Source: Staphylococcus phage Machias. From it: DNA of 64,000 nt. The stretch lies in sequence record MW349128.1. One strand, given 5' to 3'. Below, in pieces: positions 5,745 to 22,016 of the stretch. Each line of letters begins with the position of its first letter. The first letter of the stretch is position 1. Position numbers and translations under genes: made by a program. The notes under the pieces are model-generated. The model saw nothing but the letters and a program-made list of their open reading frames with translations, was not told where the DNA came from and did not search any database.

Positions 5745-5751
5745 GAAATAA

Positions 5752-5800
5752 ATATATATTATAAATAGGTAATGAGCAAATATTATAACGCTCATTACCT
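5752..5800 (+). promoter_or_regulatory. early-type promoter box TATATTATAA plus 11-bp-stem 5' hairpin
   Basis: ATATATATTATAAATAGG followed by AGGTAATGAGC...GCTCATTACCT. The SD and ATG are about 20 nt downstream. Confidence 0.45.
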
Positions 5801-5816
5801 ATATTAAATTATTAAA

Positions 5817-6344
5817 ATGGAGAGTGAAATGGATATGTCAAACAAACAAGAAATTTTTACATTTGAAGAAATATTTAAAGAATTAACGGATTTTCAAACA
5901 AGTAGTAAATTGGAAGAATTTCCTAATAAGAATATTTTAAAAGGTATATTAGAGAATATCAGTAATAAGAGAGATTTAGAAAATAATAAAATGTATATAA
6001 GTATCAATATTAATAATTCACTAAAAGAATTAAAGAACATTGAAGATAATATAATTGATATCTTCAAAGATAATGAAGTTAATGAAACTGATAAAGAGAA
6101 TATCAGTACTTTATTAAAAACATCAAGTGATATTAAAACAAATATTAATAAAGATGATTATAAATCAGTATTAATATTAGAAACATCTTTAGATGAAATT
6201 ATTAATAAAATTAATAAAGATGAATTTAATAATAAAGATCTTAAAGAACTTTATGTATCAACTTATAATAATTTATCAGTAACATTAATGTCATATAAAT
6301 TACTTAAATTAATAGACGGATTTGACAAAATTAAAAACGGATAA
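5817..6344 (+). CDS. hypothetical protein
   Basis: 175-aa ORF preceded by a TATATTATAA box, a hairpin and a GGAG. Confidence 0.6.
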   Translation: MESEMDMSNKQEIFTFEEIFKELTDFQTSSKLEEFPNKNILKGILENISNKRDLENNKMYISININNSLKELKNIEDNIIDIFKDNEVNETDKENISTLLKTSSDIKTNINKDDYKSVLILETSLDEIINKINKDEFNNKDLKELYVSTYNNLSVTLMSYKLLKLIDGFDKIKNG

Positions 6345-6358
6345 GGGTGAAATGAATT

Positions 6359-6976
6359 ATGAAAAATAAATTTCTAATATTTCAAGATAAAGACAATAAT
6401 AATTATTTATTATTGTCTAATTTTGAATTTAATAAAAAGGTTAAACCAGATTACACGCATGATATAAAAGATATTAATGAAGTTGTTAAATTCAATAAAA
6501 AAGGAAAAAATCAATTTAAAATGAGATTTGATTTCCATACAGGTCATATCGTTAGATTTAATGAATTTTACAATTATCTAGATAATATTGATAAAGACTT
6601 TAAAAATTCAAATGCTAAAATTATTGATAATATTATGAATTCTGATTTAAAATCAGTTGATAAAGTTAATATTATTTATACAGGAAATAAAACAGAAGAT
6701 AATGAAATAATTAAGACTAACTTATACTTTATTATACCTGTTGATATTGATACCATTGAATTAAACGAACATATTTCTAAAATAGATACTACTCTTATGA
6801 ATAAACGTTTAAATGATGTTTTTAAATCAGAGACGGTGAATCAGAAAATTCTTAATCTTAAACCAAGCGTAACAGAGATTAATATACTATCTAAACAGAG
6901 TAAAATTATAGATGAATATTTTAAAGATATTGATCAAGAATATAATTTTATTAATGAATTTAGTAAATCAGAATAG
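6359..6976 (+). CDS. hypothetical protein
   Basis: 205-aa ORF tightly packed after the previous gene. Confidence 0.6.
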   Translation: MKNKFLIFQDKDNNNYLLLSNFEFNKKVKPDYTHDIKDINEVVKFNKKGKNQFKMRFDFHTGHIVRFNEFYNYLDNIDKDFKNSNAKIIDNIMNSDLKSVDKVNIIYTGNKTEDNEIIKTNLYFIIPVDIDTIELNEHISKIDTTLMNKRLNDVFKSETVNQKILNLKPSVTEINILSKQSKIIDEYFKDIDQEYNFINEFSKSE

Positions 6977-6995
6977 AAAGAATGTGTTTTAAATT

Positions 6996-7721
6996 ATGAT
7001 GGATTTAATAAATAAATTAAATTTTATATCATTGATATTAAATATACCTTTCTTATTAATATCAATATATATTACATTTTATTTTTATACCTATAAGAAT
7101 ATAAAAGATAAAAAGAATAGTATATATGATATTGCTCCAGTTTCTTTTACAGTTTATTTAAGTTTATTATTAATAATATTTTTACAAATTATAATTGATG
7201 ATATATCTTCATATGGAAATTTAATATGGAATTGGAGCATTTTAATCGTAATATTAAGTGCAATAATTATTAATATATTATTAGATTTAGCATTTGTTGG
7301 TTTTATTAAAATGAAAAGTATTTTAAGAATATTTATTGTTGCTAATATATTTTTATTTGGTTTATTAATATCCGATTCTTCTATATTAAATTCAGTATTT
7401 ATGTTTTTTATAATGATATTACTTATAATAACGGTATTACATTATTCTTCAGATTATGGAATATATAAAGATAAAAGTATGAGAGTTACTTTTGCCTCAT
7501 TCTTTTCTTTATTTCCATTAATATTTTCAATACTAATTTTAAATATGAATACAATAAATTTTGAATTATCGCATTACAATATTAATAATAATGTCAATGA
7601 AAAATATATAATTATATCAATTCAAATATTATTATTACTATGGAATATGGTTGTAATTATATTTAAAGGTTTCAATATTAATATTTACACAGTAATAAAA
7701 GAATTAATAAAATTGAGGTAA
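6996..7721 (+). CDS. polytopic membrane protein
   Basis: 241 aa with at least six hydrophobic segments, followed by a perfect 13-bp-stem terminator. Confidence 0.6.
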   Translation: MMDLINKLNFISLILNIPFLLISIYITFYFYTYKNIKDKKNSIYDIAPVSFTVYLSLLLIIFLQIIIDDISSYGNLIWNWSILIVILSAIIINILLDLAFVGFIKMKSILRIFIVANIFLFGLLISDSSILNSVFMFFIMILLIITVLHYSSDYGIYKDKSMRVTFASFFSLFPLIFSILILNMNTINFELSHYNINNNVNEKYIIISIQILLLLWNMVVIIFKGFNINIYTVIKELIKLR

Positions 7722-7763
7722 TGATCATTAATTTGATCATTACCTCTAATATTTTTTTTTTTT
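7715..7763 (+). terminator. rho-independent terminator
   Basis: GAGGTAATGATCA TTAATT TGATCATTACCTC perfect 13-bp stem followed by T13. Confidence 0.7.
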
Positions 7764-7785
7764 CGTAATTATCATTTATTTAAAT

Positions 7786-7830
7786 ATATATTATAATAAT
7801 GAAGATATATAATATATAATGATATATCTT
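7786..7830 (+). promoter_or_regulatory. TATATTATAAT box plus hairpin module
   Basis: TATATTATAATAATGAAG then AAGATATAT...ATATATCTT. Confidence 0.45.
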
Positions 7831-7855
7831 AAATAAATAAAAAGGAGATGAATTA

Positions 7856-8098
7856 ATGTTTATATTAGATATAATAATTGCTTTATTATATTATACGTTA
7901 ATACCAGTAGCGATAGCTTTTGGATCTTTTGAAATTTCTAAATATTTATCTACTTATTTAGAGAATTATATATTTAAAAGAAAATTAAGCTTAAGGACAA
8001 AACTTATATTAGCAATATCACTTGTAATGTTAACATCAATAGTAAAATCAATAGTTGAAATGCGAGTACATGTTGTATCTAGTTTTCTAGGTCTATAA
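7856..8098 (+). CDS. small membrane protein
   Basis: 80 aa with two predicted TM segments. It is preceded by a promoter-hairpin module and a GGAG. Confidence 0.55.
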   Translation: MFILDIIIALLYYTLIPVAIAFGSFEISKYLSTYLENYIFKRKLSLRTKLILAISLVMLTSIVKSIVEMRVHVVSSFLGL

Positions 8099-8120
8099 TT
8101 TTCTATGATCCAACAAAAAA
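8089..8120 (+). promoter_or_regulatory. conserved box AGGTCTATAATTTTCTATGATCCAACA (copy 1)
   Basis: One of four copies, each about 30 nt upstream of an SD and ATG, each containing TTTTCTATGATCCA. Confidence 0.4.
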
Positions 8121-8144
8121 TAAGAATTAACGGAGGAATTTATT

Positions 8145-8774
8145 ATGATAAAAGTAAATAAAAAAGTTAAAAAGGGTTTATTCAATAATGGCATTAAAAT
8201 TAAAACAGAAAATACTTATACAAAAGTAATTAATGAATATACAGATATTCTAAATGATACGATTAATGATGAAGATCTTAAAAATAATGTAGTTTTTAAA
8301 GATAGTCTTAAATTTATCATTTATTATGTAGGAAAGCTTAGAGAAGATGCTTTATTACAAAATCAAGATAATGAAACTAAATTAGATATTTTTGAATTAT
8401 CTAAGGATTTAAAATATTTTAAATCTATTCTTGATAGTAAATTATTTGACTCTAAATTGATACTTCAATCAACAGGTTTTAAATTAACAAATGGAAACTC
8501 ATATTCAATGATAATAAAAAGTATTAAAAATTTATTAGATGAATTGATAAAAACAATCAATGATAAAGATAATAAAATAATTTACGAAAATGCTTATCAT
8601 TATCTTAATGAATTAAATATCTTCTTAGAAAATAAAACAAATATTGAAAAGGAGATACGAGTAAATAAATATGACATATTAGAATTTATACCAAATAATG
8701 AAAATATAGATAAAGATGAATTTTATATTATGGTTAACCATTTATATGATTTAGGTGTTTTAGAAAAAGCGTAA
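8145..8774 (+). CDS. hypothetical protein
   Basis: 209-aa ORF with a GGAGG RBS. Confidence 0.6.
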   Translation: MIKVNKKVKKGLFNNGIKIKTENTYTKVINEYTDILNDTINDEDLKNNVVFKDSLKFIIYYVGKLREDALLQNQDNETKLDIFELSKDLKYFKSILDSKLFDSKLILQSTGFKLTNGNSYSMIIKSIKNLLDELIKTINDKDNKIIYENAYHYLNELNIFLENKTNIEKEIRVNKYDILEFIPNNENIDKDEFYIMVNHLYDLGVLEKA

Positions 8775-8792
8775 TGTATACTAAAATAAGTA

Positions 8793-8836
8793 TATATTAT
8801 AATAATGAAGAAAGATAAAATATTAATATCTTTCTA
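8793..8836 (+). promoter_or_regulatory. TATATTATAAT box plus hairpin module
   Basis: TATATTATAATAATGAAGAAAGAT...ATCTTTCT. Confidence 0.45.
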
Positions 8837-8860
8837 ATAAAAATTAAAGGAGAAATTATT

Positions 8861-9028
8861 ATGAAAAACTTAGTATTAAAAACATTAGTGGGATTTGGAG
8901 TAGGAATCGTATTAGGAGTAATTAACAATAAGATTGACGAATTAATTATGCAAAAGGAAATGGAAAAACAAGTTCTTAAAAGAGCTTCAGAAATAACGTT
9001 TGAACATCCGTTTTCTAATTTAGGATAG
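8861..9028 (+). CDS. small single-TM protein (not in the ORF track; paralog of 10201-10368)
   Basis: MKNLVLKTLVGFGVGIVLGV...QKEMEKQVLKRASEITFEHPFSNLG is 55 aa and about 70% identical to the 10201-10368 product, with the same upstream promoter-hairpin-SD module. Confidence 0.55.
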   Translation: MKNLVLKTLVGFGVGIVLGVINNKIDELIMQKEMEKQVLKRASEITFEHPFSNLG

Positions 9029-9054
9029 AGGAGGAAAGAGGATAACTGTTTTAA

Positions 9055-9115
9055 AGACTTAATGAATATAATGTATCAAGTTCATTAGGTCTATAATTTT
9101 CTATGATCCAACAAT
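9055..9115 (+). terminator. 12-bp hairpin (AGACTTAATGAA/TTCATTAGGTCT) fused to the conserved TATAATTTTCTATGATCCAACA box (copy 2)
   Basis: Stem-loop followed by a U-rich ATAATTTTC. The box continues to an SD. Confidence 0.45.
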
Positions 9116-9134
9116 AAAAAGGAGCTAAAAATCA

Positions 9135-9443
9135 ATGAATAACAAAAATAAATTAGTAGAGTTAAGAAAAGAATTAAAAACTGTATATTCAAATATAGGA
9201 ATAAACAGATCATTCACTATAAGAGAAAGACTTCATAAAGAAAAAGAAAGATTAATTAAAGAAATTAATGAACTAGAAAAAGATGAAAAAACTTTCGATA
9301 GAGAAAAACATATAGCGAGAGTTAAAGATCAGAATAATGATAATATTTACAAAGGATCAGATGAATTTTCTAAAGCAGGTAGACTTCATAGAAAATATCA
9401 GAAACAAGAGAAACACGCAATTTTCAATAATTCAGAACAATAA
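9135..9443 (+). CDS. hypothetical protein (paralog of 10754-11077)
   Basis: Shares the AKAGRLH C-terminal motif with the 10754 ORF. Confidence 0.55.
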   Translation: MNNKNKLVELRKELKTVYSNIGINRSFTIRERLHKEKERLIKEINELEKDEKTFDREKHIARVKDQNNDNIYKGSDEFSKAGRLHRKYQKQEKHAIFNNSEQ

Positions 9444-9456
9444 AGGAGAAATAATT

Positions 9457-10104
9457 ATGTTAAAAATAAATAAAAGTAATTTAAAAGAGTCAAATTTAGA
9501 ATTTTCAGGAATTAAAGATTCATATCAAAAAGCTATAGATTATATTGATTTAGCATTTTTAGGAGATCAAAAGCATATAGTTAAAGGAAATGAATTTGTT
9601 AAGTTATTTTTAGAAAAAGAAAAAGAATTAAATACTGAAAAATATAATGGAAAATTAAGTAGATTAGATGTAATTTCAGTTAATGATTCTTTGAAATTCT
9701 TAATGAGAATCATGAATAATGAAATTCTAAATCCTAGAAATATTGTAGAAGAGAATACAATATCTTTATTAAACAAAGAAGATTGGAAATTAACTCATAA
9801 ACATATTATAAGATTATGTAATCAAATTATCCAACTTAATAATGAAGAACCTGAACAACAAAATGGTCTATATTATTTTTACATTATACAAAAAACTTTA
9901 AAAAATAACGAAATAGAAAATGTTAATAACATTGAAGATCTTAGAGAATTAATTATCGAGCTAGTCTATATGGATATTGATATTGAATATTTTGAAGATA
10001 AAAATTATGTAACATGGGATAATGTATTAATAGAAGAATATTTTGGAAGAGATATTGATATTATTGTAGATCAATTAATTAATAGTAAATCAGTTGAATT
10101 TTAA
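9457..10104 (+). CDS. hypothetical protein
   Basis: The track ORF 9337-10104 overlaps the previous gene. The in-frame ATG at 9457 has an AAGGAG RBS, so the start was trimmed to it. Confidence 0.55.
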   Translation: MLKINKSNLKESNLEFSGIKDSYQKAIDYIDLAFLGDQKHIVKGNEFVKLFLEKEKELNTEKYNGKLSRLDVISVNDSLKFLMRIMNNEILNPRNIVEENTISLLNKEDWKLTHKHIIRLCNQIIQLNNEEPEQQNGLYYFYIIQKTLKNNEIENVNNIEDLRELIIELVYMDIDIEYFEDKNYVTWDNVLIEEYFGRDIDIIVDQLINSKSVEF

Positions 10105-10132
10105 AAAGCGTAACGTATAATAAAATAAGCAT

Positions 10133-10178
10133 ATATTATAATTATGAAGAAAGAGTTAATGATAATCTCTTTCTTCAT
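10133..10178 (+). promoter_or_regulatory. TATATTATAAT box plus hairpin module
   Basis: TATATTATAATTATGAAGAAAGAG...CTCTTTCTTCAT (12-bp stem). Confidence 0.45.
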
Positions 10179-10200
10179 AAAATTAATGGAGGAATATATT

Positions 10201-10368
10201 ATGACAAAATTATTATTGAAATTATTAGCAGGATTTGGATTAGGAATTGTGATGGGAGTTGTTTTAGACAAGATTGAAGAAATGTCTATGCAAAAAGAAA
10301 TGGAAAAACAAGTTTTTAAAAGAGCTTCAGAAATAACTTTTGAACATCCGTTCGCTAAATTAAAATAA
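10201..10368 (+). CDS. small single-TM protein (paralog of 8861-9028)
   Basis: The internal Met of track ORF 10144-10368 sits after GGAGGAAT. The product MTKLLLKLLAGFGLGIVMGVV...ITFEHPFAKLK matches the paralog. Confidence 0.55.
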   Translation: MTKLLLKLLAGFGLGIVMGVVLDKIEEMSMQKEMEKQVFKRASEITFEHPFAKLK

Positions 10369-10510
10369 AAAAGGAGGAAACATTATGAAAATCACTATCA
10401 TTAATAAACAGAATGAAAAATCTTCTTATAGAATTAGTCTTAAAACTATTCTATTTGAAAGAAAATTAATTAAGAAATTATAAGGAGTTGAAAAAGATAC
10501 TGTTTTAAAG

Positions 10511-10570
10511 AGACCTAATGGACATGGATCAAGTTCATTAGGTCTATAATTTTCTATGATCCAACAAAAA
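10511..10570 (+). terminator. 10-bp perfect hairpin (AGACCTAATG/CATTAGGTCT) plus conserved box (copy 3)
   Basis: Same architecture as copy 2. Confidence 0.45.
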
Positions 10571-10595
10571 ACTAAAAAGAAAAGGATGATTTATT

Positions 10596-10766
10596 ATGTT
10601 AGACTTATTAAATGAAATTGAATTTATGGAAATTAACGAAGAGGAATTGCTAAACAATTATTCAGATGGAGCAAGATACCCATCTGAACAAACGTATAAA
10701 GAAATAGAATCTATACTAGATAGCTTTGATAATTCAGCTTTCGGATTAAGAAAATGGGGAGTTTAA
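10596..10766 (+). CDS. small hypothetical protein (56 aa, not in the ORF track)
   Basis: An ATG after AAAGGATGA and downstream of the conserved terminator box. This is a weak call. Confidence 0.3.
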   Translation: MLDLLNEIEFMEINEEELLNNYSDGARYPSEQTYKEIESILDSFDNSAFGLRKWGV

Positions 10767-11077
10767 TTAAAATGGTCAGAGAAGAAAAAATCAAACAATT
10801 GAAACAAGAATTACAAGCAATATTAGAAAAAGAAATTAGATTCGGAGATAAACCAATTTCAAATAAACAATTTGAAAGGAAATTAGATTTAATGAAACAA
10901 ATAGAGAAATTAAAATTTGACATTAGATCAGAAAGATATTTAAGAAATGTCAAAAAGAATAAAATTAAGGAATATAAAGTTAACAGTGATTATGCGAAAG
11001 CTGGAAGATTACATCAATCTTTCCAAAGTAAAGAAGAGCATAATCTATGGAAAGACGATTTATTAGTAATTCAATAA
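10754..11077 (+). CDS. hypothetical protein (paralog of 9135-9443)
   Basis: AKAGRLH motif is present. An alternative start is possible at 10772. Confidence 0.55.
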   Translation: MGSLIKMVREEKIKQLKQELQAILEKEIRFGDKPISNKQFERKLDLMKQIEKLKFDIRSERYLRNVKKNKIKEYKVNSDYAKAGRLHQSFQSKEEHNLWKDDLLVIQ

Positions 11078-11082
11078 TATAA

Positions 11083-11340
11083 ATGGAGGATTTTATTATG
11101 AAAATTTTAAGATTAAGAACTGAATGGGCATTAGTTTTAGGTATGACATTAGGATCAACTATTGGTTTAATGTCAAATGATTTCTTTGTAGGAGCTACAA
11201 TTTCTATGTTAACACCATTAATTGCTATAGCAATTAATTATGCAATTGGAGATGAAAGAAAATCTAAAATACAAGAAAGTAAAAGTAATAAAGTATACTA
11301 TATTAGAATAAATAGTGAGAAAGGAGATGTATTTAGATAA
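11083..11340 (+). CDS. small membrane protein
   Basis: 85 aa with two TM segments. It is paralogous to the next ORF. Confidence 0.5.
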   Translation: MEDFIMKILRLRTEWALVLGMTLGSTIGLMSNDFFVGATISMLTPLIAIAINYAIGDERKSKIQESKSNKVYYIRINSEKGDVFR

Positions 11341-11537
11341 TGAATGAAGAAAAAAGATTATTGAAACTAAAGCCATGGATATTATTTTGGTTTACTTTTA
11401 TAATTGGTTTTATCATAGGAGAAATGATTGGATACGTAGAAGGAAAATCTTTAGCACTTGGATTAGTATTATCAGCTGTATCATTATTAATTAATTATAC
11501 AGTAGGAGAAATTAGGAAAGGAAATTTTTGGAAATAA
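11340..11537 (+). CDS. small membrane protein
   Basis: 65 aa with two TM segments. Its start codon overlaps the previous stop. Confidence 0.5.
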   Translation: MNEEKRLLKLKPWILFWFTFIIGFIIGEMIGYVEGKSLALGLVLSAVSLLINYTVGEIRKGNFWK

Positions 11538-11567
11538 TCAATTAAACTATAAGGAGGTGTATCGGAT

Positions 11568-11678
11568 ATGTTAATCGCAAACTTTATTACAATCATCGTG
11601 TTGCTTGTATTCATGAAAGCAACAGGATGTTTCAAATTTATGAAAGAAGTCTTCAATAATAACAATGAAGATAAATAG
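11568..11678 (+). CDS. micro-ORF encoding a 36-aa single-TM peptide (not in the ORF track)
   Basis: MLIANFITIIVLLVFMKATG... follows a GGAGG RBS. It is followed by the GAGTGGAT/ATCCACTC hairpin. Confidence 0.35.
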   Translation: MLIANFITIIVLLVFMKATGCFKFMKEVFNNNNEDK

Positions 11679-11686
11679 ATTTAAAA

Positions 11687-11714
11687 GAGTGGATTATTTT
11701 CTATGATCCACTCT
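11687..11714 (+). terminator. hairpin GAGTGGAT/ATCCACTC whose loop carries TATTTTCTATG (copy 4 of the box)
   Basis: Perfect 8-bp stem. It precedes the GC-rich island gene. Confidence 0.4.
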
Positions 11715-11731
11715 ACATATTAAAAATAAAG

Positions 11732-12013
11732 GTGGACGACAAAATGACAGATACAATTAAAATTATTAAAACAAAAAGAGGATTCCAACCTCAAATAAAT
11801 GGAGTGACAGTTCTAGAGGTGGTAGCTAAAGACAAAGAGGGTCTGGATCTTGCTCTATCTCAAGATGTGTTTGACCTAACTGAAGCCATCGAGAGACAGT
11901 TTCACGATGAGGAGAACAACTTCGGTCTCCTGTTCCACATGGCAGGAGCAGACGGAAGAAAGCAGGAAGAAGTCTTTGAATTCTTTGAAGGCTTTGACGT
12001 TGACGTATTCTGA
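11732..12013 (+). CDS. acidic hypothetical protein encoded by a GC-rich island
   Basis: The 93-aa ORF is roughly 48% GC by eye against an estimated 25% background. It is flanked by hairpins on both sides. Confidence 0.55.
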   Translation: MDDKMTDTIKIIKTKRGFQPQINGVTVLEVVAKDKEGLDLALSQDVFDLTEAIERQFHDEENNFGLLFHMAGADGRKQEEVFEFFEGFDVDVF

Positions 12014-12090
12014 TCATTGTTAGGCTATCTATTAAGGTAGATAGCTTATAGAGTGATTAACTCACTATTAAAATTAAAGGAGAAATTATT

Positions 12091-12681
12091 ATGAAAAAAA
12101 TTTTAGGTGTATTAGGTGTAGTAGTATTATTAGCGGTATTAGGTGTAACAGTTTTATTTGGATACAGTCAATATAAGAATATAAAAAGTAATGATAAAGA
12201 ACTGAAGACAGAACAAAAACAAGAAGTTAAAGAAAAACCTAATAAAAATAACAACGAAGAAAATAACAAAGAAGTAAACAACGAAGAGAATCAATCTTTA
12301 GAAACAGAACAAAGTTCAGATTCAACAGAAGTTAATAGTAATGTTGAAAATACTCAAGAAGTTGATAACAGTGACCAACCAAAAGCAGATGATCCTCAAA
12401 GCATAAACGAAGAAATTATTAAGGCTGATAAGAATGGAGATGGAATTGCCACAACAGATGAAATGACACCAGAGCTAAATAGATTAGCCGAAGAAGGTAA
12501 ATTCCAACCAGTTTCACCTGAAATGGCGAATCCTGAACTTCATAAAAAATATGAATTGAGCGAAGAAGAAAAACATAGTGGTTCTGAAGAAGAAGATATG
12601 GATGCAGAATATGAAAAGCAAAAAGAGATGTATGAGAAAGCATCTAGAGGGGAAATTCCAGAACCAGGCGAAGGTATGTAA
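12091..12681 (+). CDS. signal-anchored protein with low-complexity region and EF-hand-like loop
   Basis: N-terminal MKKILGVLGVVVLLAVLGVTVLFGY, then N/E/Q-rich sequence. DKNGDGIATTDE fits the 12-residue EF-hand loop consensus. First of three tandem paralogs. Confidence 0.55.
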   Translation: MKKILGVLGVVVLLAVLGVTVLFGYSQYKNIKSNDKELKTEQKQEVKEKPNKNNNEENNKEVNNEENQSLETEQSSDSTEVNSNVENTQEVDNSDQPKADDPQSINEEIIKADKNGDGIATTDEMTPELNRLAEEGKFQPVSPEMANPELHKKYELSEEEKHSGSEEEDMDAEYEKQKEMYEKASRGEIPEPGEGM

Positions 12682-12728
12682 TTGATATAATTGAATAGAA
12701 TAAATAAAATATTAAAGGAGAATTTATT

Positions 12729-13184: not shown

Positions 13185-13210
13185 AAATAAATTAAAAGGG
13201 GAAATTAAAA

Positions 13211-13651: not shown

Positions 13652-13678
13652 TAATATAAATTATAAGGAGAAATCATA

Positions 13679-13921: not shown

Positions 13922-13927
13922 ATTATT

Positions 13928-13977
13928 AGATCATGGATCTTTTTATAGATCCATGATCTTCATTAATTATTTTTTTA
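13928..13977 (+). terminator. rho-independent terminator
   Basis: AGATCATGGATCT...AGATCCATGATCT 13-bp stem followed by a T-run. Confidence 0.65.
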
Positions 13978-13987
13978 CAAGAAAGAA

Positions 13988-14659: not shown

Positions 14660-14662
14660 ATA

Positions 14663-14702
14663 TATATTATAAAAATGAGTAATATTAATTAATATTACTC
14701 AA
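14663..14702 (+). promoter_or_regulatory. TATATTATAAA box plus hairpin module
   Basis: TATATTATAAAAATGAGTAATATTAATTAATATTACTCA. Confidence 0.45.
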
Positions 14703-14716
14703 AAATAAAATAAAAG

Positions 14717-15241
14717 GTGGAAATAAAAATGAAATATTATTTAATTGGTAAATTTACTAGTAACAGAGAATTTAAAGGAAGAGAATATATTTATAAAGTG
14801 CCAGAAAAATTAGTAACTCCAGAACTTATAGAAAATATTGGATCTTTTGATAGAGATTATGCTTTAGTAACTACTGCAAATTATAGCACAGCTACAACAT
14901 TAGAAGATTTTGCGGTTAGCGTTAAACCAATTAGAGTTGAATCTATTATGACAGAAGATGAATTCATTAGATCAGAATATGTAAAAGATTTAAATGATTT
15001 AGAATATAGAACTGATGAAGAAGATGAAGTTCATGAATATAAAGAAATTATAAGTTTTATTGGTAGAGATATTTTTGAACATTTTAAAAATCTAGATAAG
15101 AAGAAAGAAAAAGAAAAATTAGAAAAGTTAATGAAATTAAGAATGCAGAAATTAGAATCTGAAAAAGATATTGAAGACAAAATTTCTAAATATGAAGATA
15201 AAGAATTATCTGAATTGTATAATAAATACAAAGAACTATAA
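14717..15241 (+). CDS. hypothetical protein
   Basis: 174 aa with a promoter-hairpin module upstream and a Lys/Glu coiled-coil tail. Confidence 0.55.
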   Translation: MEIKMKYYLIGKFTSNREFKGREYIYKVPEKLVTPELIENIGSFDRDYALVTTANYSTATTLEDFAVSVKPIRVESIMTEDEFIRSEYVKDLNDLEYRTDEEDEVHEYKEIISFIGRDIFEHFKNLDKKKEKEKLEKLMKLRMQKLESEKDIEDKISKYEDKELSELYNKYKEL

Positions 15242-15243
15242 TA

Positions 15244-15465
15244 ATGAATCCCAATGAGATAAATATTCTCATTGGGATTATTTTAATTAAATTAATAGGA
15301 GTTGAATTGGATATGTTTGAGACGATATTTTTATTTTCTTTATTATTAATTGCTTTTATAATAGGTTTTATTGGAATGAAAAAAGAATTAATGACAATGG
15401 TATTATTAGCTATGATAATTGCAATTGGAGAAGTCATATTAACAATAACATTTTTATCAATATAA
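15244..15465 (+). CDS. small membrane protein
   Basis: 73 aa with two TM segments. Confidence 0.45.
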   Translation: MNPNEINILIGIILIKLIGVELDMFETIFLFSLLLIAFIIGFIGMKKELMTMVLLAMIIAIGEVILTITFLSI

Positions 15466-15487
15466 TAAATAGGGAGCTGAAACGGAT

Positions 15488-15985
15488 ATGTTAAAAAATA
15501 AAAATATTGAAATTAATCAAGATATTATTAATAATGAATTACTAAAAACAAAATACTTAGAAATGGAGATTACAAAAATGTTTAAAAATGACTTATTATT
15601 AAATTTAAGATATCTAAAAGATAATCTATTATCATCATGGTTATTTGATATGAGTGTAGCACATTTTACTAATTTAGAGGTTTTCTATGATCCTGACTAT
15701 AAAATTAAAATGACTTTTATAGTAGATGATAAAAATATCGAATATACTTTAAATGAATCAGTTCAAGAAATGATTTATAATTTCATGATTAAAAAATCAG
15801 ATGATGAAAGAGCATGTGAGATTATTAAATCTATTATTGAATTTGAATATTTTAAAAAGATGAATAAAAAGGGTCATGATATTGATATGGAGTATGCTAA
15901 TTTACTTATGGATAAAGTTAAAGAATTACAAGATAAATACAATATTAGTAATAAACAAGCTAAGAAATTATATATTGCTTATTAA
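15488..15985 (+). CDS. hypothetical protein
   Basis: 165-aa ORF. Confidence 0.55.
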   Translation: MLKNKNIEINQDIINNELLKTKYLEMEITKMFKNDLLLNLRYLKDNLLSSWLFDMSVAHFTNLEVFYDPDYKIKMTFIVDDKNIEYTLNESVQEMIYNFMIKKSDDERACEIIKSIIEFEYFKKMNKKGHDIDMEYANLLMDKVKELQDKYNISNKQAKKLYIAY

Positions 15986-15996
15986 AGGAGATAGTT

Positions 15997-16191
15997 ATGG
16001 CTGGAAGAAACTATAAATTAACACCTAAAGAACGTAAAGAAGTAATGCAATATATAATTCATAATAATTGGAAAACATTAGATCAATTTGCTGAAAGATT
16101 TAATGTTAGTAGACAGTGTATTACTGATATTATTGATTATTATGAAAATATGTACGGAAGAACATTTTATAGAAGGAAGAAAGAGAAGTGA
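15997..16191 (+). CDS. small HTH DNA-binding protein
   Basis: DQFAERFNVSRQCITDII has a helix-turn-helix-like pattern. The protein is 64 aa and basic. Confidence 0.45.
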   Translation: MAGRNYKLTPKERKEVMQYIIHNNWKTLDQFAERFNVSRQCITDIIDYYENMYGRTFYRRKKEK

Positions 16192-16197
16192 TAAATT

Positions 16198-16821
16198 ATG
16201 AAAAATAAAGTAAATATATTTGACTGGTATCTTTATAAAACAGGTTATGATGCAATGATACCTTTTATAATTAAAATGATAATGATGCTTGGATCAGTAT
16301 TATTATTCTTTTCATTACTAGGAGTTAGCTCTAAATTAGCATTACTATCTTTATTTGTATTAGTTCCAATAATAATTTCTTCTATAATTATAGGTGAAAA
16401 ATATTTTAATTCAAGAATAATGGAAGAGTATCAACATTTAAATAAATCATATAAGTATAAAGGAAAATATTATTCTGCATGGTATATAATATTAAATAGT
16501 AAAGATCCATACTTCAAAGAGTTAATGGATATTATGAGAAATGACGGCACTCTTAGTGAAGACCGTAATATACTTTATAATCTAGACGGACTATATATGC
16601 CTCCATTTAAAAAAGGAGTTATAGAAAGTCATGAAAGGAAATATAAAAATCACTGGAAAAATAATATTGAAACTAATCGTCTTTTAACGTATATTGAATT
16701 CTTAAGATATAAAAAGAATAAACTTAAGATAGAAAAATCAAATGAGATGGTTAAAGAAATAAAAGAATTTCAAGATTACTATAATTTAAACACTAAAGGA
16801 GAAAATAAAAATGAATACTAA
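16198..16821 (+). CDS. membrane protein
   Basis: 207 aa with two N-terminal TM segments. Confidence 0.55.
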   Translation: MKNKVNIFDWYLYKTGYDAMIPFIIKMIMMLGSVLLFFSLLGVSSKLALLSLFVLVPIIISSIIIGEKYFNSRIMEEYQHLNKSYKYKGKYYSAWYIILNSKDPYFKELMDIMRNDGTLSEDRNILYNLDGLYMPPFKKGVIESHERKYKNHWKNNIETNRLLTYIEFLRYKKNKLKIEKSNEMVKEIKEFQDYYNLNTKGENKNEY

Positions 16822-17275
16822 AATTATCGCAGCATTTCCAGGTACAGGTAAATCTTATATTAAAAACAATATCACATTCTTAAAAACATCTGATTCGGAT
16901 TCAACTAGCTTTTCATGGTTAGTAAAAGATGGGGAAAAGATTAGAGATCCTAGATTTCCAAAGAATTATATTCGTTATATTAAAGACCTTTATTATAAGA
17001 ATGTAATGGATTACATTTTTGTATCTACACACAAAGAGGTTATCCAAGAATTGATTGATAATAATTTAGAATTTGTTGTAGCTTATCCTAAACGTTCAGA
17101 TAAAGAAATTTATCTAAATAGATATAAAGAAAGAGGTTCAGATAGTAAATTCATTGAACTTCTTGATAATATGTTTGATAGTTTTATAGATGATATAGAG
17201 AATAAAGTTCCTGAAGAAAACAGAATTGAACTCAATCATAATGAATATCTAGCTAATGTATTAGATAAAATTTAA
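16811..17275 (+). CDS. P-loop NTPase (putative nucleotide kinase)
   Basis: Walker A motif AFPGTGKSY at the N-terminus. The 154-aa size suits a small kinase. Confidence 0.45.
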   Translation: MNTKIIAAFPGTGKSYIKNNITFLKTSDSDSTSFSWLVKDGEKIRDPRFPKNYIRYIKDLYYKNVMDYIFVSTHKEVIQELIDNNLEFVVAYPKRSDKEIYLNRYKERGSDSKFIELLDNMFDSFIDDIENKVPEENRIELNHNEYLANVLDKI

Positions 17276-17291
17276 ATAAGGAGATATTAAT

Positions 17292-17744
17292 ATGAAATAC
17301 TTTAAAACAATTTTGAGAGGAAAAGAATGTTATTTTCAAGGTAAAAGTAAAGAAACGGTCTTTGATGAATTAATAAAAAGTGAAATATTTAAGGTGAATA
17401 GTTTTGTATTAACACTAACCAGCGAAATATCTTTTGATACCGAGACTTTATCCGAAGATATTATATTTTTCTTTTATGGTGAAGAAGATGATGGTTTAAT
17501 AGTTAAAGATGTTAATAATTTAATTATAAGTAAATTAAAAGATGAATTTGAATATGAACAATATTATGATGATACGATACTTATTCCAGAAGATGAAGAA
17601 GGATTAATAAAAATAATAGACAATGTACTATTAATTATTAAAAATAATCTAAGTGAAGGATATTGTAATTCAATGGATTTTAATTTAAGAGATATAACAG
17701 AGAAAGAGTATAAAAATAATTTAATAAAGGACAATTTTAGATAA
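17292..17744 (+). CDS. hypothetical protein; member of the C-terminal EYKxxLIK family
   Basis: Ends ...EKEYKNNLIKDNFR. Confidence 0.5.
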   Translation: MKYFKTILRGKECYFQGKSKETVFDELIKSEIFKVNSFVLTLTSEISFDTETLSEDIIFFFYGEEDDGLIVKDVNNLIISKLKDEFEYEQYYDDTILIPEDEEGLIKIIDNVLLIIKNNLSEGYCNSMDFNLRDITEKEYKNNLIKDNFR

Positions 17745-18214
17745 TGAAGAATAAAAAGAATATAGATAAATTAATAAATAATAACTTAAAATTACCAGTT
17801 GAAGTTACACAAAATTATATCAATAATTTCATATATAAATCATTAGATACAATTAATAAAGAAACTGAAGTTAAACCAAATAGAACTTATATTATTAATG
17901 AAAAACATAATCTATTTCATAAAGCAGAAAATTTTATTGATTGTATATTAGAAATGTTGGATGTTGAAGTGGGAACTTTAATAGACAATGAAGATTTAAA
18001 ATTAGTAAGGAATATTAAAAAGGATGATATAGGTAGAGATATTGAAATATATACAACTATAGAAACCTTAACATACAATAATTCAATTACAATGTTGTTA
18101 GTAAAAAGTATTAATAATAAAAATAAATCTGTAGTTGGAGATTTAATATTTGATATTAATATAGGTAATAAATTAGGTAAGGATAATTATAATAAAAATA
18201 TCTATTTAAATTAA
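17744..18214 (+). CDS. hypothetical protein
   Basis: 156-aa ORF. Confidence 0.5.
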   Translation: MKNKKNIDKLINNNLKLPVEVTQNYINNFIYKSLDTINKETEVKPNRTYIINEKHNLFHKAENFIDCILEMLDVEVGTLIDNEDLKLVRNIKKDDIGRDIEIYTTIETLTYNNSITMLLVKSINNKNKSVVGDLIFDINIGNKLGKDNYNKNIYLN

Positions 18215-18223
18215 TTATAAGTA

Positions 18224-18254
18224 TATATTATATAAATGAAGTTGATAAACTTCA
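18224..18254 (+). promoter_or_regulatory. TATATTATATAA box plus hairpin module
   Basis: TATATATTATATAAATGAAGTTGATAAACTTCAT. Confidence 0.4.
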
Positions 18255-18286
18255 TATCAATTAAAACAATAGGAGTGAAATAGATA

Positions 18287-18619
18287 ATGTTAAAAGATAG
18301 TAAAAAAGTTATAGATAGAATTTATGATAAAATTGTAGGAGACTTAATTGTTATATCTAATTGCAGACATTTGATGGAAGAAAGTTTCTTCTATAATATA
18401 GAAGATTCTAGAGAAAAAGATCTTGATAATTTAGCAGATTCTCTAACAGTAGTATCTTCAGATATATTTACATTAAAAGAAATATTAGAAATTGATGAAG
18501 AAACTATTAATGTAGAATTATTAGAAGAATATGGTTTAAATTATAAAATGATAGAGAACTTTCACCTTAAATTAGAATTAGGAAGTTATCATATGAAAGA
18601 ATTAAATAGTTTTGTATAA
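18287..18619 (+). CDS. hypothetical acidic protein
   Basis: 110 aa, with a promoter-hairpin module upstream. Confidence 0.5.
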   Translation: MLKDSKKVIDRIYDKIVGDLIVISNCRHLMEESFFYNIEDSREKDLDNLADSLTVVSSDIFTLKEILEIDEETINVELLEEYGLNYKMIENFHLKLELGSYHMKELNSFV

Positions 18620-18645
18620 ATAATATATTAAAGGAGATTAAATAT

Positions 18646-19131
18646 ATGAAGTATTTGGAGAATAAAAATAAGGAGGTCTTTCCAGTCACAGAAGAAGGAA
18701 TTGAAGATTTATTATTCTTTCTTCTAGACTACTCACAGAAGAATAACTTTAATACAATGCCTATAGTGAAAGAGATTAATGACCATGTGATGTTAGGGGA
18801 AGATATTAGAAAGAAATTTATTAATTCTAAAACAAATGAAAGTATCTTAGAATTAGGTAATGTAAAAGGAAGTTTAACAAATGAATTAGCTAGAAGTGGT
18901 TATATAACTAATTTTTCCGGTAATAAAAGATCTATTTCAATATATGTAAAAAACAATAATTTTAAATTTATTAGAATTTCAGATCATGCAATTAATAAAA
19001 AAGTAAACAATAAAGGAATCATTACAAATAGGTTTGACGGACAATTAGTATGTAAAAATAATTTAGTTAAATCTTCTGATTTGAAAAAGCATGGAATTGA
19101 TATTAGTGAAGGAATATACTATTTAGAATAG
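18646..19131 (+). CDS. hypothetical protein
   Basis: 161 aa with an AAAGGAG RBS. Confidence 0.55.
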   Translation: MKYLENKNKEVFPVTEEGIEDLLFFLLDYSQKNNFNTMPIVKEINDHVMLGEDIRKKFINSKTNESILELGNVKGSLTNELARSGYITNFSGNKRSISIYVKNNNFKFIRISDHAINKKVNNKGIITNRFDGQLVCKNNLVKSSDLKKHGIDISEGIYYLE

Positions 19132-19148
19132 AATGGAGAAAATAAATT

Positions 19149-19454
19149 ATGAAAAAGATTTTAATGTTATTTGGAGTTATAGTATTAACAACAGTACTGG
19201 CAGGTTGTACATGGTTTGACGATGCTGCTAAAGATCATAAATCAGATACATCAGGTCTAGAAAGAAAAGTAACTATATATAGTAAAGATGGTAAAGTATT
19301 ACATCAATATGAAGGAAAGAAAATCAGAACTAAATATAGTGATGAAGCAGGTGGTAGTTACATTGTTATTAATGTAGATGGTAAACGTTTGCAAGTATTA
19401 AATGCAGATGTAGTTATTGAAGAAAAAGGTATTGAGAAATTTGAAACGAAATAA
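19149..19454 (+). CDS. putative lipoprotein
   Basis: MKKILMLFGVIVLTTVLAGC is a signal peptide with an LAGC lipobox. Confidence 0.55.
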   Translation: MKKILMLFGVIVLTTVLAGCTWFDDAAKDHKSDTSGLERKVTIYSKDGKVLHQYEGKKIRTKYSDEAGGSYIVINVDGKRLQVLNADVVIEEKGIEKFETK

Positions 19455-19464
19455 AGATTAAATA

Positions 19465-19508
19465 TATATTATAATAATGAAGAAAGATAGAATATTAATA
19501 TCTTTCTA
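19465..19508 (+). promoter_or_regulatory. TATATTATAAT box plus hairpin module
   Basis: Near-identical to the 8793 module. Confidence 0.45.
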
Positions 19509-19519
19509 ATATAAAATTA

Positions 19520-19834
19520 ATGGAGGAATTTGTTATGGCAAAATTAAATGAAGAAGTACTAAGAGATTTACAACTTAAAGGTGAAGTAGATGGAGAATAT
19601 GAAGTACTAGAAAGTAATGAATTAGGTGTTGATGAAGGTTATGGAACTGAATCAGGTTTAATTGAAGAATTAGGATTAGATTCAGATTCAAGTATCTTCT
19701 CTTATACAGTAGTTAATATTAATGATGAAAATGACATGTATACTTTAGAATATTCTCATGAAGATGTGTTATTAACTATTCATGATTATGATGAAGAATT
19801 TGTACCTGAAACTATCTATAAAAATGTAATTTAA
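19520..19834 (+). CDS. acidic hypothetical protein
   Basis: 104 aa with a promoter module upstream and a terminator downstream. Confidence 0.5.
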   Translation: MEEFVMAKLNEEVLRDLQLKGEVDGEYEVLESNELGVDEGYGTESGLIEELGLDSDSSIFSYTVVNINDENDMYTLEYSHEDVLLTIHDYDEEFVPETIYKNVI

Positions 19835-19842
19835 TAAAATAT

Positions 19843-19891
19843 GAGATGATACTTTAATTAAAGTATCATCTCTATTATAATTAATTTTTTT
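19843..19891 (+). terminator. rho-independent terminator
   Basis: GAGATGATACTTTA/TAAAGTATCATCTC stem followed by T7. Confidence 0.65.
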
Positions 19892-19915
19892 ATTTGAAGG
19901 AGATGAAAAAGGTAG

Positions 19916-20542
19916 ATGAATTATTTCATGTTGGATTTTAGAGGTTTATTAAGAAATTTTAAAAATATTGATGCACTAAAATTACCATATAAACAAAATA
20001 AAGATAGTATTGATTCTCAAGAATTAAATATTATTTTATTTGAACAATTTTTCAATGAATTTTATACTGATAGAATGAGAAAAATAATTAAATATAACAC
20101 AATCACTATTGAATTGAATAGCTTAAGAAATATTATAGAATTTAAATACCATATAGTATCAAGAGGTAATATAGGTTTATTTAGAGAAGACGTATATGGA
20201 GATTATTATAGATTGACAGATAATATAGAAAATTCTAAAAATATATTTAATCTAATTAAAGAAGATATCAACAATTTAGATTTAGAATTTTCAAACCTAG
20301 AATTAATTATCGATATAAGTGAAAATAGGAATATCGTATTTGAATTAATTTCACATTGTAACTCTAAAGAAATTATCGAACCTATAAATAATAATATTGG
20401 ATATGATAATGGAAATAGTGCAAGAATGTATAAAGTTAATAATATGAGGCTATACAACTTTATGAATATTGTAAATAATAGAATACAAGAAATTAATGAA
20501 AAAGAATATAAAAATGAATTAATAAAAAGGGGATTTAAATAA
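19916..20542 (+). CDS. hypothetical protein; EYKxxLIK-tail family
   Basis: Ends EKEYKNELIKRGFK. Confidence 0.5.
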   Translation: MNYFMLDFRGLLRNFKNIDALKLPYKQNKDSIDSQELNIILFEQFFNEFYTDRMRKIIKYNTITIELNSLRNIIEFKYHIVSRGNIGLFREDVYGDYYRLTDNIENSKNIFNLIKEDINNLDLEFSNLELIIDISENRNIVFELISHCNSKEIIEPINNNIGYDNGNSARMYKVNNMRLYNFMNIVNNRIQEINEKEYKNELIKRGFK

Positions 20543-20543
20543 T

Positions 20544-21083
20544 ATGGAAATCATTAAAAAATTTAGAATAGAACAAGACGGTCACTTTGATATATTTCAT
20601 TTAATAAGAGATGAAGGAGAAATTTCAGATAAGGAAATCATCGACACTTATATGTTTTATAGATTTAAACATAATGTAGAAACTACACCAGGAAATGTAT
20701 TGATTAATTTTAAATTGATAAATATGAATAATGAAGTAGTTAAACATATATCATTTGAGAATAGTCCTGAATGGGTTGAAGATAATCATTTAAATAATAT
20801 AATTCACGTTCATGAAAATGGAGAAGAATATACTAAAAATATTAGTTTCTTAGAAAGTAAAAATATGAATAAATTTATATTTAATAGCTATATACGTAAT
20901 ATTAAAGAAGATATGTATATAGTTTTTTCATACAATTTTGATTTTCTTCCAGAACATGATGGAGAGGAAGAAGATGTTATTTTCTATAGTTCTGATTATA
21001 ATTTATATGAATATAAAGGGTATATAGATGATATGTCTAAAGAAGAATACAAAAAATTTATAGTAAGAGAGACATTTAAATAA
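20544..21083 (+). CDS. hypothetical protein; EYKxxLIK-tail family
   Basis: Begins MEIIKKF and ends EEYKKFIVRETFK. Confidence 0.5.
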   Translation: MEIIKKFRIEQDGHFDIFHLIRDEGEISDKEIIDTYMFYRFKHNVETTPGNVLINFKLINMNNEVVKHISFENSPEWVEDNHLNNIIHVHENGEEYTKNISFLESKNMNKFIFNSYIRNIKEDMYIVFSYNFDFLPEHDGEEEDVIFYSSDYNLYEYKGYIDDMSKEEYKKFIVRETFK

Positions 21084-21101
21084 GGAGATGAAATTGTTAT
21101 T

Positions 21102-21944
21102 ATGGAAATCATTAAAATAGATAAAAGACTAACTAAAAAGGATAATGAGAATACAAAATTGAATATGTTGTATAAAAATAATGAAGATGATAATTTTTAT
21201 AAATTCTTTATCAATTCTGTTGTAGATTATAATTCAAATTATAAAAATGATGGAAAATTTATGCCCCAAGTAGGTACAATATTTGTACATGATATTGTAC
21301 CTGAAGATGAAAGATATAGTGATAATTATTTTGACATAAGTGAAGTAATGCAATTATTTAATAAAAAATTATTTAGACATGTTAAAAAGGATATAGACAA
21401 TAGAATAGATATATTATATATAGAAAATCGTGGTACTAAAGAAAGTTATTATTTAATTTTATCTAATAAAGTAAATAAAAGAATATTAAATAGATTTAAA
21501 GAGTATCAATTTAAATTAGATAATTATGTAAAAGGTAAAAATAGAAAGCAAATCAATCCTTATCTTTTTAATAATTATTCATCTCCAAATAAATTATATG
21601 AAGTTATTTCAAAAACAATAACTTCATATATCAATATATCTAGGAGAGATCGTATAAATAATAAAGAAATGAAAAATATGAAATTCTTTTTAATTCCTAA
21701 TAAAGAAGAATTAAATAATTTCTTATCAGTTTTAATGAAAAAATATAATTATGAAATACTAAATTGCAATTTCTTTAGAGATAAAAAAGGTATTGAATTA
21801 TATTCTTTATATTTTAAAGATGAAGTAATAGATAATTTAGATTCTATATCATATAAAGATATTATTAATAAAAATAAAGAAAAAATAACTTTTGTACCAG
21901 AAGATGAATATAAGAAGATAGCAGTAAAAGAAAGTTTTAAATAG
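21102..21944 (+). CDS. hypothetical protein; EYKxxLIK-tail family
   Basis: Begins MEIIKID and ends EDEYKKIAVKESFK. Confidence 0.5.
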   Translation: MEIIKIDKRLTKKDNENTKLNMLYKNNEDDNFYKFFINSVVDYNSNYKNDGKFMPQVGTIFVHDIVPEDERYSDNYFDISEVMQLFNKKLFRHVKKDIDNRIDILYIENRGTKESYYLILSNKVNKRILNRFKEYQFKLDNYVKGKNRKQINPYLFNNYSSPNKLYEVISKTITSYINISRRDRINNKEMKNMKFFLIPNKEELNNFLSVLMKKYNYEILNCNFFRDKKGIELYSLYFKDEVIDNLDSISYKDIINKNKEKITFVPEDEYKKIAVKESFK

Positions 21945-21952
21945 ATTATATA

Positions 21953-22016
21953 ACATCTCATCCATAAATAATATAGTAACTTTTTATTATATTATAATAT
22001 AGAAATGGATGAGATG
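21953..22016 (+). promoter_or_regulatory. TATTATATTATAATAT box embedded in a 12-bp inverted repeat
   Basis: CATCTCATCCAT...TATTATATTATAATAT...ATGGATGAGATG upstream of the 22022 ORF. Confidence 0.35.

Follow-up and report, generated by a model that had tools for sequence, protein, structure and literature searches.

Early-region genes of Staphylococcus phage Machias are preceded by a recurring arrangement in which an AT-rich box is followed by a hairpin, a Shine-Dalgarno (SD) sequence and a start codon. This arrangement was noticed at positions 5,752 to 22,016 in a first-pass annotation of a 64,000-nucleotide stretch of the phage genome (sequence record MW349128.1; the whole stretch is hereafter called the window). 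Its presence raises the questions of which RNA polymerase (RNAP) reads the box and what the hairpin contributes. Judged by its sequence, the TATATTAT box is the already-known early promoter of the virion RNAP in AR9-like Staphylococcus jumbo phages. The new part is that this known promoter class, in a clade-specific form, is fused to a 5'-terminal stem-loop. On balance, we favour the view that each module is the head of an early transcription unit, in which the virion-RNAP transcript would begin with a stabilising stem-loop.

A megablast search with positions 5000–23000 yielded matches limited to Staphylococcus jumbo phages, of which vB_StaM_PB50 (PB50; 97% identity) is the best and AH12 (93%) the next, followed by Madawaska, MarsHill, PALS_2, S6, DC4 and LY01 at 77–86% identity. 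These matches place the window, with a G+C content of 18–32%, in a Staphylococcus jumbo phage of the S6/MarsHill/PALS_2 group. A virion multisubunit RNAP with split beta and beta' subunits is encoded by this phage, as indicated by a beta' domain match (RNA_pol_Rpb1_2) at 1701–2822, by the PB50 annotation, which lists virion and non-virion RNAP subunits, and by a tblastn search with the 1701–2822 protein, whose nearest relatives outside Staphylococcus are from Listeria phage LPJP1 (42%) and then from Bacillus phages BpSp, AR9 and PBS1 (~37%). The lineage is AR9/PBS1-like and carries two multisubunit RNAPs, and the phage is a Staphylococcus jumbo phage of the uracil-DNA type.

A predicted AR9-type early promoter heads eight transcription units

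The early promoters of AR9 (n = 41) were mapped by differential RNA sequencing and primer extension to the consensus AAATATATATTAT-(6N)-G(+1), and, because they fire in the absence of protein synthesis, were assigned to the injected virion RNAP (Lavysh et al. 2017, PMC5312081). The window copies agree with this consensus base for base, such that +1 corresponds to the G of 'GAAG'. The block, the 6-nucleotide (nt) spacer and the G are present in all eight copies, with AAAT, AAGT or AAGC as the first four bases. The TATATTAT box represents the 3' part of TAAATATATATTAT, located at −20 to −7, and is followed by six A/T-rich bases and the G. Thus, the common design is (T)AA[A/G][T/C]ATATATTAT, six A/T-rich bases, G, hairpin, A-rich linker, GGAG and ATG. 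Confirmed boxes on the plus strand start at 5755, 7787, 8793, 10132, 14663, 18224 (where the box reads TATATTATAT) and 19465, each with AAATA, AAGTA or AAGCA immediately 5' of it. In every confirmed module the G lies precisely 7 nt past TATATTAT, the 5' arm of the hairpin begins at that G or 1–2 nt further on, and the A-rich linker, a GGAG-type SD and an ATG complete the arrangement. The component features are as follows, where hairpin energies are minimum free energies (MFEs) of positions +1 to +36 and z values are relative to shuffled sequences.

5749–5769, plus strand: early promoter 1, block TAAATATATATTAT at 5749–5762, spacer AAATAG, predicted +1 G at 5769; fits the AR9 consensus
5769–5798, plus strand: 5' hairpin 1, GUAAUGAGC paired with GCUCAUUAC, 9 bp, −11.1 kcal/mol, z −6.7
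~5819–6344, plus strand: gene behind hairpin 1, SD GGAGAG at ~5819–5824, ATG at 5829 (PB50 annotation), end at 6344
7715–7758, plus strand: terminator-like hairpin, GAGGTAATGATCA...TGATCATTACCTC and then a T12 run, closing the upstream unit just ahead of promoter 2
7781–7801, plus strand: early promoter 2, predicted +1 G at 7801
7802–7830, plus strand: 5' hairpin 2, AT-rich stem, −5.9 kcal/mol, z −1.8; SD AGGAG at 7843–7847, gene 7856–8098
8787–8807, plus strand: early promoter 3, predicted +1 G at 8807
8809–8835, plus strand: 5' hairpin 3, AGAAAGAUA paired with UAUCUUUCU, −7.6 kcal/mol; gene 8861–9028 (55 amino acids)
10126–10146, plus strand: early promoter 4, predicted +1 G at 10146; paralogue of promoter 3
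10146–10176, plus strand: 5' hairpin 4, GAAGAAAGAG paired with CUCUUUCUUC, −13.2 kcal/mol, z −4.4; gene 10201–10368 (55 amino acids, paralogue of 8861–9028)
14657–14677, plus strand: early promoter 5, predicted +1 G at 14677; TAA at −20 to −18 is the stop codon of the upstream gene
14677–14700, plus strand: 5' hairpin 5, GAGUAAUAUU paired with AAUAUUACUC, −9.7 kcal/mol, z −7.8; gene 14729–15241
18218–18238, plus strand: early promoter 6, box TATATTATAT, predicted +1 G at 18238
18238–18253, plus strand: 5' hairpin 6, GAAGUU paired with AACUUC, −6.1 kcal/mol, z −1.9; gene 18287–18619
19459–19479, plus strand: early promoter 7, predicted +1 G at 19479
19481–19507, plus strand: 5' hairpin 7, AGAAAGAUA paired with UAUCUUUCU, −8.5 kcal/mol; SD GGAGG at 19522–19526
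19535–19834, plus strand: gene behind hairpin 7, probable start ATG at 19535, end at 19834
43826–43846, minus strand: early promoter 8, block −20 to −7 at 43846–43833, predicted +1 G at 43826
43807–43826, minus strand: 5' hairpin 8, GUAAAUC paired with GAUUUAU, −4.3 kcal/mol, z −1.7; gene 43780–42989

Seven of the eight sites named in the first-pass annotation are genuine modules, with two positions corrected by a single nucleotide (7786 to 7787 and 10133 to 10132). The site at 21986/21988 was rejected, as it reads TTATATTAT and lacks the upstream AAAT, a hairpin at +1 and a GGAG SD. The eighth true module had been missed; it lies on the minus strand outside the annotated range, with its box at 43840–43833, +1 at 43826 and its gene at 43780–42989.

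The exact 10-mer TATATTATAA occurs 11 times in the window compared with 5.0 expected, a count reached by 0 of 100 shuffled sequences, and versions with one mismatch occur across the window at chance frequency. For the extended pattern ATATATTAT-N6-G, the count is 9 against an expectation of 1.8 (again reached in 0 of 100 shuffles), and eight of these nine matches are full modules. All eight modules are intergenic and point toward an SD-led gene shortly downstream. The remaining exact 10-mers (4663 on the minus strand, 40148 and 43322 on the plus strand) are located within or at the edge of coding sequence and lack the other module parts. Paralogy among the copies at 8793, 10132 and 19465 reduces the number of independent copies in the window to approximately six.

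Additional sites were obtained from the whole PB50 genome, assembled from database entries, which carries 39 exact ATATATTAT-N6-G matches, ~35 of them credible. The consensus of these 35 sites is tTAAATATATATTATAAaAaTG, in which positions −15 to −7 and the +1 G are invariant since the search pattern demanded them, and in which only T at −20, A at −19 and −18, and T at −16 (33–35 of 35) constitute independent evidence.

These findings suggest that a multisubunit virion RNAP, injected with the DNA, would recognise T-AAATATATATTAT at −20 to −7 and start at the G located 7 bases past TATATTAT. By homology to the mapped AR9 promoters, this assignment is very likely correct. AR9 and the Staphylococcus phages share the 13-nt block, the 6-nt spacer, the G start, a location directly upstream of early genes, and split beta/beta' RNAPs. 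They differ in that AR9 transcripts begin with GAU and have short leaders, whereas those of the Staphylococcus clade begin with GAAG, GAGG or GUAA, and in that the latter clade has an extra T at −20, a T at −1 and an inserted hairpin of ~28 nt. The promoter confirms that the AR9 early-promoter code extends unchanged to the Staphylococcus jumbo phages and fixes the likely start base; no new promoter biology is involved.

The virion-RNAP assignment made in the first-pass annotation therefore stands, as the AR9 consensus is matched base for base and the same motif has been predicted for the MarsHill clade. The annotation had likened the box to the early consensus of phiKZ-type polymerases ('TATATTAC-like'). 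AR9 is a much closer match than the phiKZ family, for which the likeness noted here is one of general architecture: phiKZ-family early promoters similarly consist of an extended AT-rich element with a start 6 nt downstream, as summarised in the AR9 study (PMC5312081). A start 5–10 nt downstream of the box had also been proposed, and the predicted start indeed lies 5 nt past the 10-mer.

The promoter part of the module is already known because Korn et al. (bioRxiv 10.1101/2020.12.14.422802) used MEME to find the TATATTAT motif ahead of 29 genes in MarsHill and identified it as equivalent to the early promoter of AR9. MarsHill belongs to the same clade and has the same TATATTAT, and the window boxes are orthologues of those in MarsHill. 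The text of that preprint gave 0 matches for hairpin, stem-loop, terminator or start site, and the present analysis adds the +1 register, a hairpin census and a hairpin-less promoter class. No mention of the hairpin or stem-loop was found in the publications on the AR9 transcriptome, MarsHill, DC4 and PALS2, within a searchable literature that is incomplete. An RNA sequencing study of phage SA1 (PMC9414953) gives gene clusters only, without promoter analysis.

In most modules, the stop codon of the upstream gene lies only 3–21 nt ahead of the promoter block. Abutting or overlapping arrangements are seen at 14657–14659, 5742–5749, 18212–18218 and 19452–19459, and at 14657 the upstream gene even terminates on the TAA of the promoter block, a sign of how extremely the early region is packed.

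A predicted stem-loop on the sense strand of the transcript

The predicted start places 'GAAG' at +1 to +4 of the transcript, and the hairpin thus lies at the 5' end of the RNA, as the first-pass annotation had suspected. It had further proposed that the hairpin might define this end, a role that falls instead to the promoter. Given the predicted +1, a stable stem-loop is present close to the 5' end in the modules, whose mean MFE is −8.3 kcal/mol compared with −2.28 kcal/mol (standard deviation 2.21) for window 36-mers that start with G. None of 200,000 resamplings of such 36-mers reached the observed mean. Shuffle z-scores for the individual modules range from −1.7 to −7.8, and two non-module sites scored +0.4 and +0.6.

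A larger set of 53 unique hairpins was collected from seven genomes (the window, PB50, AH12, Madawaska, PALS_2, LY01 and the more distant SA1). Their stems start at +1 in 37 cases, at +2 in 2 and at +3 in 11. For ~70% of the promoters in the Staphylococcus clade, the first 16–32 nt of the RNA are predicted to fold into a stem-loop with 0–2 unpaired 5' nucleotides, and we have good confidence in this fold, which is read directly from the sequence.

The stems are diverse. Among 32 non-redundant hairpins there are 28 distinct 5' arms, and each stem position is occupied by 4–7 pair types, a few non-pairs included. Native arms form 7.8 of 8 pairs, compared with 4.6 of 8 when arms are swapped between hairpins. 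Orthologous genes can be preceded by different stems, as in the group that includes the hairpin at 14677: GAGTAATATTAA in the window, GAGATTAATGA in Madawaska and GAAGATAA in SA1. The statement in the first-pass annotation that the hairpin sequence differs between copies is true only in part. Conservation of structure was gauged by folding each sequence, by the arm-swap control and by counting G·U pairs on either strand. Alignment with MAFFT followed by RNAalifold, applied to the +1 regions and to hairpin-only segments, misaligned the 3' arms and produced no consensus structure. A search of the whole window against Rfam 15 at the gathering score gave 0 matches.

Comparison of the two strands indicates where selection acts. 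Across the 53 hairpins, 34 G·U pairs are present in the sense fold and 4 in the antisense fold. The sense fold is the more stable in 38 of 53 and the less stable in 8 of 53 (p = 2e-5). This bias points to the transcript, rather than duplex DNA or the opposite strand, as the target of selection, and structure is preserved under sequence change on the sense RNA strand. From this pattern, the hairpin is in all likelihood an RNA-level, sense-strand element. An antisense terminator, for which the promoter spacer would supply an ATTTTT-like tail on the opposite strand, was considered and rejected as the main function on account of the same 34:4 bias.

The stem-loop is not universal among promoters of this class. 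It is present at ~25 of the 35 PB50 promoters, where leaders are 46–70 nt long, at 5 of 9 SA1 promoters (42 kb examined) and at 2 of ~5 candidate promoters in Listeria phage LPJP1. Two promoters that carry a hairpin in the window lineage lack one in Madawaska, PALS_2 and LY01. For hairpin 6 (18238–18253), this absence represents a loss, because the hairpin is kept in the outgroup SA1. Among AR9 early-promoter motif matches (first 150 kb), 0 of 22 have a hairpin at +1 and the mean MFE is −1.7 kcal/mol compared with −2.5 for background; for SD-led sites, 0 of 20 have an MFE of −5.9 kcal/mol or lower. The SD starts at a median of +18.5 in AR9 versus +46 in PB50, a gap of approximately one hairpin length. 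Because stemless promoters occur in PB50, its relatives and AR9, the stem-loop is an add-on of the Staphylococcus/Listeria branch that is separate from promoter recognition, and it is not obligatory as the first-pass annotation had supposed.

In LPJP1, a jumbo phage of Listeria grayi, TATATTAT-N6-G followed by a +1 hairpin was observed with +1 at 6374 and 24964 (coordinates of the examined stretch). One stem is formed by GTAATATA/TATATTAC and the other is a long GACTATGTAAT.../...ATTACATAGTC. The three further candidate promoters have short leaders and are stemless.

Possible roles of the stem-loop

We hypothesize that a hairpin flush with the 5'-triphosphate would bar RppH, RNase J1 and RNase Y from a single-stranded 5' end and so yield longer-lived early mRNAs, with the A-rich, unstructured linker of 10–20 nt leaving the GGAG SD open. 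The same hairpins might, more speculatively, act as internal exonuclease roadblocks on read-through transcripts. BsRppH requires at least 2 and favours at least 3 unpaired 5' nucleotides, and 5' secondary structures stabilise mRNAs in the cases of the E. coli ompA and papA 5' untranslated regions and the B. subtilis aprE leader (review PMC3997798). As in these leaders, the phage element is a stable stem-loop 0–2 nt from the 5' end followed by a strong SD, an arrangement that hinders RppH and 5'-end-dependent RNases. Unlike them, it is serial, with dozens of copies and diverse stems on one phage promoter class, and its stabilising effect is predicted. Stabilisation is ranked first because the 0–2 unpaired nucleotides match known blocks to 5'-end-dependent decay. 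The proposal that early mRNAs are shielded in this way while the linker keeps the SD open appears to us evenly balanced between right and wrong.

Several observations weigh against this reading. Taken singly, three of the eight hairpins in the window are weak (z ~ −1.7 to −1.9). Hairpins were selected by folding, which makes the pairing percentages partly circular and leaves the background MFE comparison and the strand asymmetry as the independent evidence. Approximately 10 of the 35 PB50 promoters (~30%) have short leaders of 19–43 nt and no stem. The host of AR9, B. subtilis, has the same RNase J1/RppH machinery, yet AR9 is hairpin-less. The absence in AR9 indicates that the hairpin is dispensable for the promoter class, and an argument from host RNases leaves its distribution unexplained. 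Finally, the RGTAATGA...TCATTACY and ATCCCAATACC... hairpin families double as T-tailed terminators, which is compatible with a less specific function of the hairpins or with their spread through duplication.

The best placed of the alternatives is that the hairpin stops or attenuates transcription, protects the 3' end of the upstream transcript, or terminates prematurely to give short 5' RNAs. The RGTAATGA-loop-TCATTACY family is found as T-tailed terminators at window positions 7717–7744, 42948–42975 and 62201–62228, and at promoter +1 at window 5768–5799 and in 5 of its 13 PB50 copies; the terminator-like hairpin at 7715–7758 shares its sequence family with several +1 hairpins at other genomic positions. 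No further hairpin separates the upstream stop codon from the promoter in six of the eight modules, and the short distance from that stop codon to the block makes the +1 hairpin also the first hairpin past the upstream gene, which keeps a terminator or 3'-protector role alive. In addition, short RNAs derived from 5' untranslated regions by premature termination have been reported in the giant phage 201phi2-1. Nevertheless, A outnumbers T in the tails of the +1 hairpins (means of 5.5 and 4.4 per 10 nt, respectively; at least 6 T in 27%), unlike in the T-rich tails of hairpins that follow genes (5.9 T per 10 nt, at least 6 T in 67%), and the +1 hairpins generally lack the U-rich tract that directly follows the hairpin of an intrinsic terminator or attenuator. 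A terminator scan of the window listed T-tailed hairpins at 7715, 15247, 19843, 23413 and 24216 and none of the eight +1 hairpins. Furthermore, a strict +1 register is needless for a terminator. Hairpins are also kept at divergent intergenic promoters without an upstream co-directional gene (PB50 3331 on the plus strand, 201312 and 271184 on the minus strand), and promoter 2 retains its own +1 hairpin despite the T12 terminator directly upstream. Given this evidence, a role in termination, attenuation or 3'-end protection is unlikely.

Two further observations concern these families. The PB50 copy of the RGTAATGA family at 117272 comes after an apparently decayed promoter, and the second family, ATCCCAATACC.../AATCCCAATGAG..., occurs at window positions 50151 and 15247.

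Less probable still is that the stem-loop serves as the binding site of a phage or host RNA-binding protein that switches off early mRNAs, selects them for translation or protects them while host RNA is shut off. The recurrence of sequence families (GAAGAAAGA..., GAGGUAAUGA...) and the frequent UUAAUU-type loops suggest a role beyond structure alone, and the restriction to one clade (Staphylococcus phages and LPJP1, but not AR9) is what a co-evolving factor predicts. However, no shared sequence determinant was found among the 28 different 5' arms and the varied stem pairs of the 32 hairpins, duplication of modules along with paralogous genes explains the families equally well, and no candidate protein was identified. 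A related idea, to which we give slightly less weight again, is that hairpin families found both at the first base of early transcripts and at T-tailed 3' ends form a phage-specific marking of RNA ends read by a phage factor. If this were true, the hairpins would not be passive nuclease blocks; the factor could protect phage mRNAs while virus-induced degradation of RNA is under way, or determine when early messages are shut off. The system would then be an acquisition of the Staphylococcus/Listeria branch that postdates its split from AR9.

It is improbable that the box is an ordinary host sigma-A promoter, its TATAAT contained in TATATTATAAT, and that the hairpin is a structure in the leader of transcripts made by host RNAP. 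TATAAT is present in four of eight boxes, and a consensus scan gave one match, TTATCA-17-TATAAT, at 7769–7797. Yet sigma-70-type matches occur at chance in this AT-rich window (194 found versus 187 expected), only one module scores 10/12, and the 35-site PB50 profile has no conserved −35 column; −35 and −10 hexamers at 16–18 nt spacing are therefore not conserved across copies. Moreover, the conserved block is positioned 5' to the −10 hexamer and does not share its register, and the consensus is that of AR9 early promoters, which are attributed to an injected RNAP that needs no new protein synthesis.

The least probable alternative, that the inverted repeat acts as DNA, either as the operator of a dimeric repressor or as a cruciform for the polymerase as in the N4 virion-RNAP hairpin promoters, draws on the direct adjoining of palindrome and start site and is countered by the diverse stems, a G·U (sense) over C·A asymmetry that is meaningless for duplex or cruciform DNA, and the AR9 homologues and a third of PB50 promoters that work, or are predicted to, without a hairpin. 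The coliphage N4 polymerase is single-subunit, and its hairpin is a DNA structure located upstream of +1 that is needed for recognition. Both systems combine a virion-packaged RNAP with a hairpin at the early promoter, but here the hairpin sits downstream of +1, is dispensable and is under RNA-level constraint.

The +1 hairpin represents a cheap, testable prediction on how a phage with its own polymerase might also manage early-mRNA decay in a Gram-positive host. A natural comparison set exists in the hairpin phages (S6-like, SA1 and LPJP1) versus AR9, and in promoters with versus without a hairpin inside one genome. The promoter, hairpin, linker and SD also form a compact cassette that could serve for gene expression from engineered S. 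aureus jumbo phages.

Downstream genes and other sites

The regions 8787–9028 and 10126–10368 hold two paralogous genes for 55-amino-acid proteins (MKNLVLKTLVGFG... and MTKLLLKLLAGFG...), each with its own promoter, hairpin and SD. The entire unit, from promoter to gene, was duplicated. Both products (8861–9028 and 10201–10368) are probably small membrane proteins, and the copy number and order of these units vary among AH12, PALS_2, Madawaska and LY01. A Pfam search with the eight promoter-driven proteins gave nothing above the curated cut-off, the sole match being a sub-threshold one to GvpK for 18287–18619.

In PB50, an early-promoter match on the minus strand at ~205561–205638 puts the predicted +1 6 nt before a tRNA-like gene (detected by ARAGORN, with an odd anticodon loop), and a tRNA-Asn gene lies 350 nt beyond it. 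The virion RNAP may thus transcribe tRNAs early in PB50; the window itself has no tRNA.

The ninth exact ATATATTAT-N6-G match, at 62334 on the minus strand, was left out of the module set, as it lacks a hairpin, an SD and the upstream AAAT bases. It is part of a palindromic ATAATATATTATAT at 62319–62344 and is antisense to the local genes. The plus strand of the same palindrome carries a ATATATTAT-N6-A match ~20 nt upstream of an open reading frame (ORF) at 62363–63163, and the site may be a deviant promoter.

The 490-bp divergent intergenic region at 44500–44990 has an extremely high AT content, and imperfect inverted repeats and ATATATTATTATATTT motifs crowd both of its strands. No canonical early promoter was found in this region, which could be an origin or a regulatory region.

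A perfect 12-bp inverted repeat (21954–21965 and 22005–22016), with arms CATCTCATCCAT and ATGGATGAGATG, encloses a 39-nt loop that holds the rejected site at 21988 and the palindrome TATATTATAATATA. The right arm stops 6 nt short of the ATG of ORF 22022–22684, which has no clear GGAG SD, and the repeat may be a translational or termination structure.

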